DNA from: a virus
DNA: 64,000 nt
Direction: 5' to 3' (one strand)
IMG/VR virus record: IMGVR_UViG_3300032782_000001
Coordinates: 52,404-116,403 of that record
Shown here: piece after piece, positions 58,807 through 60,113 of the stretch
How the letters are laid out: the number at the start of each line of letters is the position of its first letter
How positions within the stretch are numbered: position 1 is the stretch's first letter
The notes under the pieces: model-generated
The model's database searches: none
Told to the model about the DNA's origin: nothing
The model's input: the letters and a program-made list of their open reading frames with translations, nothing else
Program-made: the position numbers and the translations under genes

Positions 58807-58887
58807 GCCCGGGTGAGCTAACGGTGAATGGCACAGCCACTAGATTTAGGGTCTAGGCTTTTGCGGGTTCGAGTCCCGCCCCGGGTA
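58807..58887 (+). tRNA. atypical 81-nt tRNA with Leu anticodon TAG (expanded D region, short variable loop)
   Basis: acceptor gcccggg/cccgggt; stem ctaga/tctag, loop tttaggg; T-arm gcgggttcgagtcccgc; shares gaatggcacagcc with 59947 and 60033. Confidence 0.5.
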
Positions 58888-58892
58888 CTAAG

Positions 58893-59099
58893 ATGAACCA
58901 TGAAGACGAACATGAGTACGACGATGAGAGTGATGAGATTCACTCATACGATCAAAACTCATCCAATGTTTTCGTGAGGGCCGGTTATATTCGAGCCATG
59001 GCTCACAAGCTTCCACATGGTGAAGATTGGAAATTTCTGAGGCGGGCTTCCAAGTCTCTCCTGGCGTACGGGAAGAAGCTTCAGGAAGAAGGCAAATGA
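58893..59099 (+). CDS. hypothetical acidic protein
   Basis: 68 aa. Confidence 0.35.
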   Translation: MNHEDEHEYDDESDEIHSYDQNSSNVFVRAGYIRAMAHKLPHGEDWKFLRRASKSLLAYGKKLQEEGK

Positions 59100-59269
59100 A
59101 GCCAGAAGACATCAAGAAAGTACATGAACTTACGGGGCTCAGTCTATCGGCTTGCAAACGTGCGCTTATCGTCTCCAAAGATGTGGAACATGCCGTAGCA
59201 CTTCTTAAGAAAGAGTTTTTGACTTCTCCCGAAGAAGTCAAAGAAGAAGACCGTAAGCCGGTCTGTTAA
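59096..59269 (+). CDS. small UBA-like (EF-Ts N-terminal-like) domain protein
   Basis: IKKVHELTGLSLSACKRALIVSKDVEHAVALL resembles the EF-Ts/NAC UBA-like helix bundle; ATGA overlap. Confidence 0.35.
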   Translation: MKPEDIKKVHELTGLSLSACKRALIVSKDVEHAVALLKKEFLTSPEEVKEEDRKPVC

Positions 59270-59334
59270 ACGCTCTCGTATCCTAATTGGCAACGGAACA
59301 CCCCTCAGAAGGGTGGAATGTGAGTTCGAGTCTC
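59262..59334 (+). tRNA. class-I architecture tRNA with Leu anticodon CAG
   Basis: acceptor gctctcg/cgagagc; stem caccc/gggtg, loop ctcagaa; 4-nt variable loop; discriminator A. Confidence 0.55.
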
Positions 59335-59342
59335 ACCGAGAG

Positions 59343-59416
59343 CACTGTTTGCGCGATGGTGGCCCAACTGGCAGAGGCGCTACCTTGAGGTGGTAGAGGT
59401 TGAGGGTTCGAATCCC
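59343..59416 (+). tRNA. class-I architecture tRNA with anticodon GAG
   Basis: acceptor gcgatgg/ccgtcgc; stem ctacc/ggtag, loop ttgaggt; T-arm gagggttcgaatccctc. Confidence 0.5.
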
Positions 59417-59422
59417 TCCCGT

Positions 59423-59506
59423 CGCACTAATGTCCTCGTGGTGGAAAGGCATACACACCAGGCTGAGAACCTGGGCTCTTAAATGGGCATTGGGAGTTCG
59501 AGTCTC
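59423..59506 (+). tRNA. tRNA-Leu(GAG): tRNA-Leu(GAG), type II with long variable arm
   Basis: acceptor gtcctcg/cgaggac; stem ccagg/cctgg, loop ctgagaa; about 16-nt variable arm; T-arm gggagttcgagtctccc. Confidence 0.6.
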
Positions 59507-59559
59507 CCCGAGGACACAAATCAATAAGCTGTCGTTGTAGACCTCTCTAGGAGGTCCGC

Positions 59560-59961
59560 ATGGGAATCATCGGAGAATTCCTCAAGAGGCGTCGCAGGGA
59601 TGGCGCAAAAGCTGACTCCGAACGTGGGCTCACCAACGAATGGAGAGTCTGGAAAGTTCTCCAACGTCCTAGTCGACCGTGGTGGATCACGAATGTTCGC
59701 ATGTCGACCGTCGCTGAAGATCATCATGGTATCGATGTTGTCGTTGAGACATCGGATTACGGGGATCTCTACCTCCAAGTCAAGAGCTCGCTTAGGGGAG
59801 CAAAGGAATTTCGCAGCAAAAGTCGTAGTGTTCGTGTGGACATCGAAGTCGTGGTGGTTGCACGAACGGATGATGCTAACACGTTGTATGGAAAGACTCT
59901 TGGCGCTCTGATTCTCCTTAGAGAGAGGTTGGATGCAATGAGTTCTGGACTCGTGGGATAA
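59560..59961 (+). CDS. hypothetical protein
   Basis: 133 aa. Confidence 0.4.
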   Translation: MGIIGEFLKRRRRDGAKADSERGLTNEWRVWKVLQRPSRPWWITNVRMSTVAEDHHGIDVVVETSDYGDLYLQVKSSLRGAKEFRSKSRSVRVDIEVVVVARTDDANTLYGKTLGALILLRERLDAMSSGLVG

Positions 59962-60027
59962 AGGCGAATGGCACAGCCTGCCGGTTTAAGCCCGGTTCCT
60001 TTGCGGGTTCGAGTCCCGCCGGGTCTA
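59947..60027 (+). tRNA. atypical 81-nt tRNA with Leu anticodon TAA
   Basis: acceptor ggactcg/cgggtct; stem ccgg/ccgg, loop tttaagc; T-arm gcgggttcgagtcccgc. Confidence 0.45.
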
Positions 60028-60032
60028 CTAAT

Positions 60033-60113
60033 GCGCGAGTGGGGTAGTAGCGAATGGCACAGCTTGCCGCCTCAAGAGCGGTCCCTTTGAGGGTTCGAGT
60101 CCCTCCTTGCGCA
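60033..60113 (+). tRNA. atypical 81-nt tRNA with Leu anticodon CAA
   Basis: acceptor gcgcgag/cttgcgc; stem ccgc/gcgg, loop ctcaaga; T-arm gagggttcgagtccctc. Confidence 0.45.

Follow-up and report, generated by a model that had tools for sequence, protein, structure and literature searches.

The window analysed here, a 64,000-nucleotide (nt) stretch of the IMG/VR virus record IMGVR_UViG_3300032782_000001 (positions 52,404 to 116,403), carries three 81-nt transfer RNA (tRNA) genes with the leucine anticodons UAG, UAA and CAA, which we consider likely to be phage-encoded leucine tRNAs of a distinct five-helix architecture, here termed X-type. In this architecture the long variable arm of bacterial tRNA-Leu would have been lost, and a 7-nt insertion after G9 would provide a short additional helix, helix X. 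The wider proposition, which we favour on balance, is that these genes exemplify a natural and previously undescribed leucine tRNA fold, in which the long arm is replaced by pairing of the insertion with the variable region; this fold would be leucine-specific, functional in translation with bacterial leucyl-tRNA synthetase (LeuRS), widespread in phages of oceans, groundwater and other sampled habitats, and unannotated in model phages such as phi38:1.

Read from the 5' end, an X-type tRNA consists of an acceptor stem, U8-G9, a 3-nt X strand, an A/U-rich linker of 3-6 nt, a D hairpin, the anticodon arm, the trinucleotide UUU, the T arm and A73 (Table 1). Between G9 and the D stem lie seven additional nucleotides, the first three of which form one strand of helix X and pair with the first three nucleotides after the anticodon stem (by eye AGC/GCU, GGA/UCC and GGG/CCC in the window genes). 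The D hairpin presents a GAAUGGNANA loop, of the form G-A-A-U-G-G-Y-A-N-A, on a stem of 2-3 base pairs (bp), and the remaining parts are canonical, comprising a 7-bp acceptor stem, a 5-bp T arm with a UUCRANU loop, and a 5-bp anticodon arm with a 7-nt loop. All three window genes exceed the gathering score of the Rfam tRNA family RF00005 (29 bits), in alignments that each contain a 9-12 nt 'D loop' insertion and one D-stem mismatch. The initial annotation had described a non-canonical architecture in these genes, with a shared region of about 25 nt between position 9 and the anticodon stem, and short variable loops. Coordinates and Rfam insertions bear this out: the region measures 24 nt in each gene and includes GAATGGCACAGC in all three, and 6 nt (three nucleotides plus UUU) separate the anticodon stem from the T stem. 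In each gene a 4-nt linker leads into a 3-bp stem closing the loop GAAUGGCACA, together a D arm of leucine type that resembles the one in the class II tRNA-Leu of the window and is displaced 7 nt downstream of the place directly after positions 8-9 where a tRNA D stem (10-13/22-25) would begin. The genes lack the long variable arm of class II tRNA-Leu (a stem-loop of at least 11 nt), and they also depart from class I (about 73-76 nt, a variable loop of 4-5 nt and no extra helix) in their 81-nt length, 6-nt variable region, 7-nt insertion and covarying helix X. An alternative fold that places the extra nucleotides in a conventional long variable arm had been raised at the outset; the extra bases cannot form such an arm, because they lie 5' of the D arm.

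The evidence for helix X comes from covariation within a larger family. Public collections were scanned by a pattern combining the D-loop motif and the T loop (it fixes GAATGG.A.AG, TTT and the T loop), with which most family members were collected, and a covariance model, R1, was built from ten 81-82-nt tRNAs that include the three window genes. The family set comprises 67 distinct sequences, which score 65-96 bits with the model, compared with at most 66.5 bits for ordinary short-variable-loop leucine tRNAs and at most about 54 bits for long-arm leucine tRNAs. In the ten-sequence alignment, which was made with MAFFT and fitted to no structure, 96.7% of the helix X cells are paired, and each of the three pairs shows double changes. 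Among the 67 sequences, whose alignment was fitted to the model, neither pair 10:60 (GC 33, AU 31, CG 2, UA 1) nor pair 11:59 (GC 34, CG 29, AU 3, UG 1) is ever unpaired; pair 12:58 is standard in 43 and otherwise non-standard, by eye mostly purine-purine in one subfamily. Twenty-four distinct combinations of X strands occur. When mutual information with average-product correction was computed all-against-all, the top 17 of 3240 column pairs were pairs of the model, those of helix X ranking 9, 10 and 17. Close relatives show the same exchange: two members that are 93% identical outside helix X (L023 and L095) differ by an A-U to G-C swap, and two that are 88% identical (L116 and L152) have exchanged all three X pairs. 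The canonical helices are 95-100% paired with many double changes (acceptor and T helices 99-100%), U33 is present in 65 of the 67, and the two inner pairs of the D hairpin are standard throughout, with G-C to A-U changes, the outer pair often being purine-purine. This covariation lends strong support to helix X, which, as far as aligned sequences can tell, is very probably real.

A different element had been proposed for the extra region, namely a mini-hairpin, ggc-aca-gcc. It can be drawn in the window genes, but across the large alignment only 74% of its cells are paired, with no double or compensatory change, and among the ten sequences its changes are one-sided only; it was accordingly rejected. 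The extra region is instead the 7-nt insertion after G9 followed by the leucine-type D hairpin, with the first three inserted bases paired to the variable region.

Table 1. Leucine-anticodon tRNA genes and other features of the window (positions are those of the window; R1, covariance model)
Feature	Position	Strand	Properties
X-type tRNA-Leu(UAG)	58807-58887	+	81 nt; Rfam tRNA 38.2 bits; R1 95.4 bits; missed by ARAGORN
UAG gene, acceptor stem	58807-58813 with 58880-58886	+
UAG gene, U8G9	58814-58815	+
UAG gene, helix X 5' strand	58816-58818	+	AGC
UAG gene, linker	58819-58822	+	UAAC
UAG gene, D hairpin	58823-58838	+	GGU/GCC, loop GAAUGGCACA
UAG gene, anticodon arm	58840-58856	+
UAG gene, helix X 3' strand	58857-58859	+	GCU
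UAG gene, UUU	58860-58862	+
UAG gene, T arm	58863-58879	+
UAG gene, A73	58887	+
X-type tRNA-Leu(UAA)	59947-60027	+	81 nt; Rfam tRNA 33.2 bits; R1 95.5 bits; missed by ARAGORN; D hairpin GGC/GCC; A73
UAA gene, helix X	59956-59958 with 59997-59999	+	GGA with UCC
X-type tRNA-Leu(CAA)	60033-60113	+	81 nt; Rfam tRNA 32.9 bits; R1 96 bits; alone of the three called by ARAGORN, misplaced at 60037-60114; D hairpin AGC/GCU; A73
CAA gene, helix X	60042-60044 with 60083-60085	+	GGG with CCC
Short-variable-loop (class I type) tRNA, anticodon CAG	59272-59344	+	73 nt; Rfam 57.2 bits; ARAGORN tRNA-Leu; 3-bp D stem, leucine-like D loop UAAUUGGCAAC, 4-5 nt variable loop, A73
Short-variable-loop (class I type) tRNA, anticodon GAG	59353-59426	+	74 nt; Rfam 56.9 bits; ARAGORN; 5-nt variable loop, A73
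Class II tRNA-Leu(GAG), long variable arm	59432-59516	+	85 nt; Rfam 53.7 bits; ARAGORN
RtcB RNA ligase	16789-17997		full-length (Pfam 418 bits)
Contents unusual for a phage	30600-33206	-
Contents unusual for a phage	36585-39500
Contents unusual for a phage	39538-40521
NAPRTase	42836-44182
tRNA gene with group I intron match	45624-45927		acceptor TCCAGGA/TCCTGGA, CCA encoded; Rfam RF00028 at 45647-45877 (76.6 bits)
tRNA-like match	47452-47519		68 nt; Rfam tRNA 45.3 bits; not called by ARAGORN
tRNA-Phe	47914-47990
EF-Tu	49316-50480		reading frame shifts near 50277-50299
GIY-YIG endonuclease open reading frame	50434-51330		overlaps the end of the EF-Tu gene
HisRS-like open reading frame	60942-61559		205 amino acids; PF13393, 67 bits

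The anticodons of the 67 members are UAG (28), UAA (23), CAA (14), GAG and CAG (one each), all of them leucine anticodons, and A73 is present in 66 and U8 and G9 in every one; anticodon, A73, U8 and G9 were all left free by the search pattern. This pattern also picked up 42 distinct short-variable-loop tRNAs of 73-74 nt, 35 with leucine anticodons and A73 and seven that are Glu, Cys, Arg or His tRNAs; the D-loop motif is therefore not leucine-specific, whereas the insertion with helix X is, to judge from the sequences collected. According to the identity review PMC9976931, leucine identity in Escherichia coli draws on A73, A15-U48, G18G19, A20a, U8:A14 and contacts between the D loop and T loop, the LeuRS of A. 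aeolicus needs U8:A14, and the long variable arm and anticodon are dispensable, such that truncated tRNAs without both are still substrates. A comparison with LeuRS identity elements, which had been proposed for the host enzyme, finds bases matching those of E. coli in the window genes. X-type tRNAs have U8, A14, A15 and G18G19 (the last three within the G-A-A-U-G-G-Y-A-N-A loop) and A73, together with an A two bases after G19 and a U directly before the T stem. Of about 11 members found with the model only, including those of phages PHB09 and phi38:1, about 10 keep A14, A15, G18G19, A20a and U48 by eye. From these bases we infer that host LeuRS would charge X-type tRNAs by way of A73 and the D-loop and core elements.

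The meaning of the cognate codons was assessed in the RtcB, EF-Tu and NAPRTase genes of the window, each aligned with 29-40 homologues and read at columns at least 80% conserved; the EF-Tu homologues derive partly from related large contigs, which makes that third of the test weaker. Leucine is the consensus at TTA in 3/3 columns, TTG in 10/11, CTA in 2/2, CTG in 11/12, CTC in 23/24 and CTT in 10/12, which for TTA, TTG and CTA combined amounts to 15/16. The conserved columns of these three proteins give no sign of codon reassignment, and a tRNA that reads TTA, TTG or CTA must therefore insert leucine to be harmless. Across 14 open reading frames (ORFs), CTC (223) and CTT (126) are strongly preferred among 523 leucine codons, and TTA and CTA are rare; the X-type genes would therefore serve the rarer leucine codons of this phage. 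It had been suggested that leucine identity is set differently here, or that some of these tRNAs decode something else. The codon columns speak against the latter, and the question is largely resolved toward ordinary leucine identity.

Several observations weigh against the X-type reading. RNAalifold, run on 68 sequences, omits helix X, and single-sequence minimum-free-energy folds hold it in just one of 67. The helix is only 2-3 bp long, with an inner pair that is non-standard in 36% of members, and the large alignment was itself fitted to the model. The conservation of A14, A15, G18G19, A20a and U48 is partly circular, being fixed by the pattern in most members. Position 37 is G in all three window genes, whereas A is usual there in UUR-reading bacterial tRNA-Leu, and TTA and CTA account for only 14 each of the 523 leucine codons counted. 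With regard to folding, energy-based methods miss even the D hairpin in most cases, and helix X goes unpredicted because a 2-3 bp helix that closes a multiloop is energetically penalised; the structure therefore rests on covariation, not on thermodynamics.

These points leave room for other explanations, two of which concern the fold. That the genes are ordinary cloverleaves with an oversized D loop of about 15 nt, in which 10-13 pair with the four bases before position 26 and complementarity to the variable region is incidental, would accord with the failure of energy-based folding to recover helix X, with the Rfam alignments, which treat the window genes in precisely this way above threshold, and with a possible U13-A22 pair in 60 of 65 sequences. 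This conventional D stem was nevertheless rejected, as it is paired in only 65% of cells in the ten-sequence alignment and 55% in the large one, and every window gene has one mismatch in it; the inner hairpin, whose two inner pairs are standard without exception, accounts better for the 3' strand of this stem, and an oversized D loop leaves unexplained why columns 10 and 11 covary perfectly with 60 and 59. We regard it as very improbable indeed. Still more doubtful, to the point of being negligible, is the idea that the 7-nt insertion is a mini-intron or processing signal, the removal of which leaves an ordinary short-variable-loop tRNA-Leu. Deleting the seven nucleotides does give almost exactly the short tRNA-Leu type that occurs alongside in related contigs (L020; t14 of Aeromonas phage 4_4572), and one relative (L002) has a 62-nt insertion in its D loop. 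We know of no bacterial or phage system that excises 7-nt segments at tRNA position 9/10, however, and the insertion covaries with the variable region, which would stay in the mature RNA and, at 6 nt, is one base longer than in the short type; this suggests a structural role for the pairing.

The remaining two concern function. X-type RNAs might lie outside translation, as decoys or sponges for host tRNA-cleaving nucleases, or as decaying relics in a very large array. In favour of this are the RtcB of the phage, a ligase that reseals broken RNAs, for instance tRNAs that have been cut, the several odd tRNA-like genes of the array, and the low frequency of TTA and CTA codons. The possibility of decay is excluded, since the five helices are under strong purifying selection in at least 67 distinct sequences. 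The anticodon loop remains canonical, with U33 in 65 of the 67, its anticodons are exclusively those of leucine, and A73 is kept; a complete isoacceptor set is more than a decoy would need. In the tRNA clusters of about 3 kb examined in small cultured phages, no Leu(UAG) gene other than the X-type one was found. We therefore think a role outside translation unlikely. An identity switch, in which another synthetase of host or phage charges X-type tRNAs, and UUR and CUA are read otherwise or by an orthogonal pair, appears very unlikely. The architecture is unprecedented, such that recognition cannot be assumed; huge phages are known to encode synthetases; and a HisRS-like class II fragment lies 0.8 kb downstream of the X-type genes. 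Set against this are the alignment of TTA, TTG and CTA with leucine in all but one of 16 conserved columns, the retention of A73 and of bases matching the known determinants of LeuRS recognition, an anticodon that varies as expected for a synthetase that ignores it, the lack of a LeuRS-sized synthetase ORF in the window, and the occurrence of the same architecture in phages of 72-95 kb that infect Bacteroidota and Gammaproteobacteria.

How the X-type fold might be accommodated in three dimensions can be sketched from canonical structure. In ordinary tRNAs, strand 8-9 lies in the deep groove of the D stem, beside nucleotides 44-46, which make base triples there. An insertion after G9 would run antiparallel to 44-46 and end near position 10 at the bottom of the D stem, and a 3-bp helix with a 4-nt return linker would fit without disturbing U8:A14, A15:U48 or the elbow. 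Since nucleotide 9 and 44-46 lie side by side in the groove, the inserted strand would turn the triples into a helix, replacing core base triples by a short Watson-Crick helix, which would act as a brace for a core whose D stem is weak and whose long arm is missing. The L shape would be kept through U8:A14, A15:U48 and the contacts of G18G19 with the T loop. In an alternative geometry, which is allowed because no nucleotide separates the anticodon stem from the 3' strand of helix X, the helix would be stacked on the anticodon stem and the D hairpin would branch off to the side; additional G9-U and U8-U pairs would give a stack with the usual 10 layers. Under the X-type reading, host LeuRS would charge these tRNAs with leucine, and they would read UUR and CUA/CUG during infection. 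Escape from host tRNA-targeting nucleases, or simple tolerance of the loss of the arm, are both possibilities for why phages favour them.

The pattern scans returned 42 viral (IMG/VR) stretches and more than 119 metagenome stretches, totals in which ordinary leucine tRNAs and a small number of tRNAs of other kinds are also counted; confirmed X-type genes lie on 11 of the 42 viral stretches and on dozens of the metagenome stretches. Among the carriers are three contigs of 306-393 kb, scaffolds from Tara Oceans and groundwater contigs from Hainich. Among 185,579 species genomes only three pattern stretches were found, all in metagenome-assembled genomes, and none is X-type, all three being short-variable-loop tRNAs. 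A BLAST search of five representatives against 50,697 GenBank phage records, a method with little sensitivity for queries of 81 nt, recovered no X-type gene with three of them. Cultured phages do carry the fold. Pseudomonas phage PHB09, which infects P. syringae, has an X-type gene at OK040171.1 17054-17133 (67 bits) that overlaps an annotated 'hypothetical protein', and in the Cellulophaga phages phi38:1 and Calle_1 X-type genes were confirmed with the model at 70-73 bits, that of phi38:1, which infects Cellulophaga baltica, lying unannotated at NC_021796.1 38539-38621 and that of Calle_1 being overlapped by a shifted 'tRNA-OTHER Undet' call. Phages phi40:1, Calle_2 and Calle_3 were matched by BLAST at 84-85% identity. 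These cultured carriers, phages of 72-95 kb that infect Bacteroidota and Gammaproteobacteria, most likely have no LeuRS of their own; the fold is therefore not confined to huge phages, and its presence in such small genomes supports use of the host LeuRS. ARAGORN detects 13 of the 67 members and misses 54. Two or three tandem X-type leucine genes with different anticodons occur on some stretches (L156 85-353, L052 543-850, L063 4594-4769), so whole leucine sets can be X-type; one of these genes (L156 274-353), altered at G18 and in its T loop, is possibly in decay.

The window offers a full leucine isoacceptor set in three architectures, and A73 ends all six leucine-anticodon genes, as the initial annotation had noted. 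Its description of the CAG gene and of one GAG gene as ordinary class I tRNAs of 73-74 nt also fits what we find. The single long-armed GAG gene that it reported is likewise present, only 9 nt away from the coordinate given for it (59423); it has a 14-nt variable-region insertion in the Rfam alignment, and it has a D arm, GUG-GAAAGGCAUA-CAC, of the type seen in the X-type D hairpin. Short-variable-loop leucine-anticodon tRNAs of 73-74 nt with A73 are common in phage and metagenome contigs (window 59272-59426; L043-L161; L167 2475-2551), one pattern yielding 35 distinct examples, five of them with anticodon AAG, and they occur in cultured phages too (t14 of Aeromonas phage 4_4572; PHB09, L166 2292-2365). 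Leucine tRNAs without a long arm seem to be a general phage trait. Two other relatives came to light. A tRNA-like gene with the apparent anticodon AUG (L002 3511-3647, from IMGVR_UViG_3300042731_008460) shares the D-loop motif and holds about 62 extra nucleotides in its D loop, flanked by GAAT direct repeats, which may be an insertion or an intron-like element. On L003, L007, L016, L021 and L041 (for example L003 7040-7111, minus strand) there are 72-nt tRNAs with the amber-reading anticodon CUA, a related D arm and, as drawn, an anticodon arm with a 3-bp stem and a 9-nt loop; these may be suppressor tRNAs of stop-recoding phages.

The window derives from a metagenomic contig of 337,333 bp (ENA ERZ27256589 k141_1250017) that looks like a huge phage, with a GC content of about 51%. 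Neither a megablast of window positions 56000-62000 nor a tblastn search with the 971-amino-acid ORF of the window found a match in GenBank phages. Between 45 and 63 kb the window contains a plus-strand tRNA array of at least 46 genes (ARAGORN and Rfam), and elsewhere or within it are genes for RtcB, EF-Tu, HNH and GIY-YIG endonucleases, an M16 peptidase, an Rv2179c-like exoribonuclease, a fragment resembling histidyl-tRNA synthetase (HisRS), and NAPRTase. No LeuRS-sized ORF with a synthetase domain is present in the 64-kb window, the remaining 273 kb of the contig having been outside this search. RtcB is 64-68% identical to bacterial homologues and, together with the size of the array, suggests that the phage invests in keeping tRNAs intact. 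Within the array, a group I intron appears to split the anticodon loop of one tRNA gene, and a 68-nt tRNA-like match has an acceptor stem of only 5 bp and the anticodon loop UCGGAAC, with C at position 33; neither this match nor the long tRNA-Phe, the other long or odd tRNAs of the window that were checked, has the X-type architecture. The EF-Tu gene, also inside the array, is about 90% identical to EF-Tu proteins of 388 amino acids, with residues 1-328 and 321-388 in different frames (tblastn), which could be assembly error, a pseudogene or programmed frameshifting. The HisRS-like ORF matches only the class II core of that synthetase and is too short for a complete enzyme. Of the proteins encoded in the three regions unusual for a phage, one of 868 amino acids has major-vault-protein shoulder and repeat domains (101 bits) and two have collagen triple-helix repeats. 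Among named homologues of the NAPRTase, the best (about 60% identity) belong to Polyangiales myxobacteria, and named RtcB matches include Planctomycetota and Kofleriaceae; these are a weak hint at the host lineage, and the GC content of such a host would be far above that of the phage.

Among known tRNAs, bacterial class II tRNA-Leu, such as that of E. coli, are the nearest relatives of the X-type. The two share leucine anticodons, A73, the 7/5 split of acceptor and T stems, and a 3-bp D stem, and the window genes have bases at positions matching U48 and, in a loop flanked by G13 and A22, matching A14, A15, G18G19 and A20a; the two differ in the X-type variable region of 6 nt, rather than at least 11, and in the 7-nt insertion between positions 9 and 10 with its helix X. 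Short-variable-loop leucine tRNAs come next. Those of animal mitochondria and phages likewise do without a long arm, and the phage examples (the two in the window, and t14 of 4_4572, which is annotated tRNA-Leu) have the D arm and the U-rich variable loop in common with the X-type; their cloverleaves, however, have just four arms and 73-74 nt, and lack both helix X and the insertion behind position 9. In PMC9976931, identity of human mitochondrial tRNA-Leu(UUR) is said to rest on A73 and A14, and minimalist E. coli tRNA-Leu constructs without variable and anticodon arms (Larkin et al., 2002; by in vitro selection, Asahara et al., 1998) are charged by bacterial LeuRS if A73 and the contacts of D loop and T loop are intact. 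The recognition logic of these constructs is the same as that proposed here, but they are engineered and have no added helix, whereas X-type tRNAs are natural genes. Allo-tRNAs, with 8/4 or 9/3 acceptor and T stems (Mukai et al., 2017, PMC5389517), resemble the X-type as non-canonical folds from metagenomes and phages that standard finders handle poorly. The X-type differs from them in keeping the 7/5 split, in losing the long arm and in adding a core helix. Long variable arms are kept in allo-tRNAs. No tRNA in which bases inserted behind position 9 pair with the variable region came up in the searchable literature, which is not proof of novelty, and in a review of non-canonical tRNAs (PMC7609411) the word 'phage' does not appear. 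The X-type is certainly a tRNA, yet one with a conserved secondary-structure element outside any described tRNA class.

The tRNA cloverleaf is among the most conserved of RNA folds, and its natural exceptions, including tRNA-Sec, the armless tRNAs of mitochondria and allo-tRNAs, have each been instructive on the recognition of tRNA shape by synthetases, EF-Tu and the ribosome. A conserved extra core helix would be a new exception, and one natural way to dispense with the class II arm. In GenBank records of cultured phages, X-type genes are unannotated, listed as 'tRNA-OTHER', or hidden under a hypothetical protein; as they are missed by these records and by ARAGORN, the leucine tRNA repertoires of phages, and analyses of codon supply that depend on them, are undercounted. 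The cultured carriers, phi38:1 and the Calle phages on Cellulophaga and PHB09 on P. syringae, make the fold, its charging and its role directly testable. An anticodon-loop strategy against host tRNA-targeting defences has already been proposed, according to PMC10264068; if it is true that the X-type shape escapes such defences, a structural strategy would be added to it. X-type tRNAs may also offer a new scaffold for engineered tRNAs.

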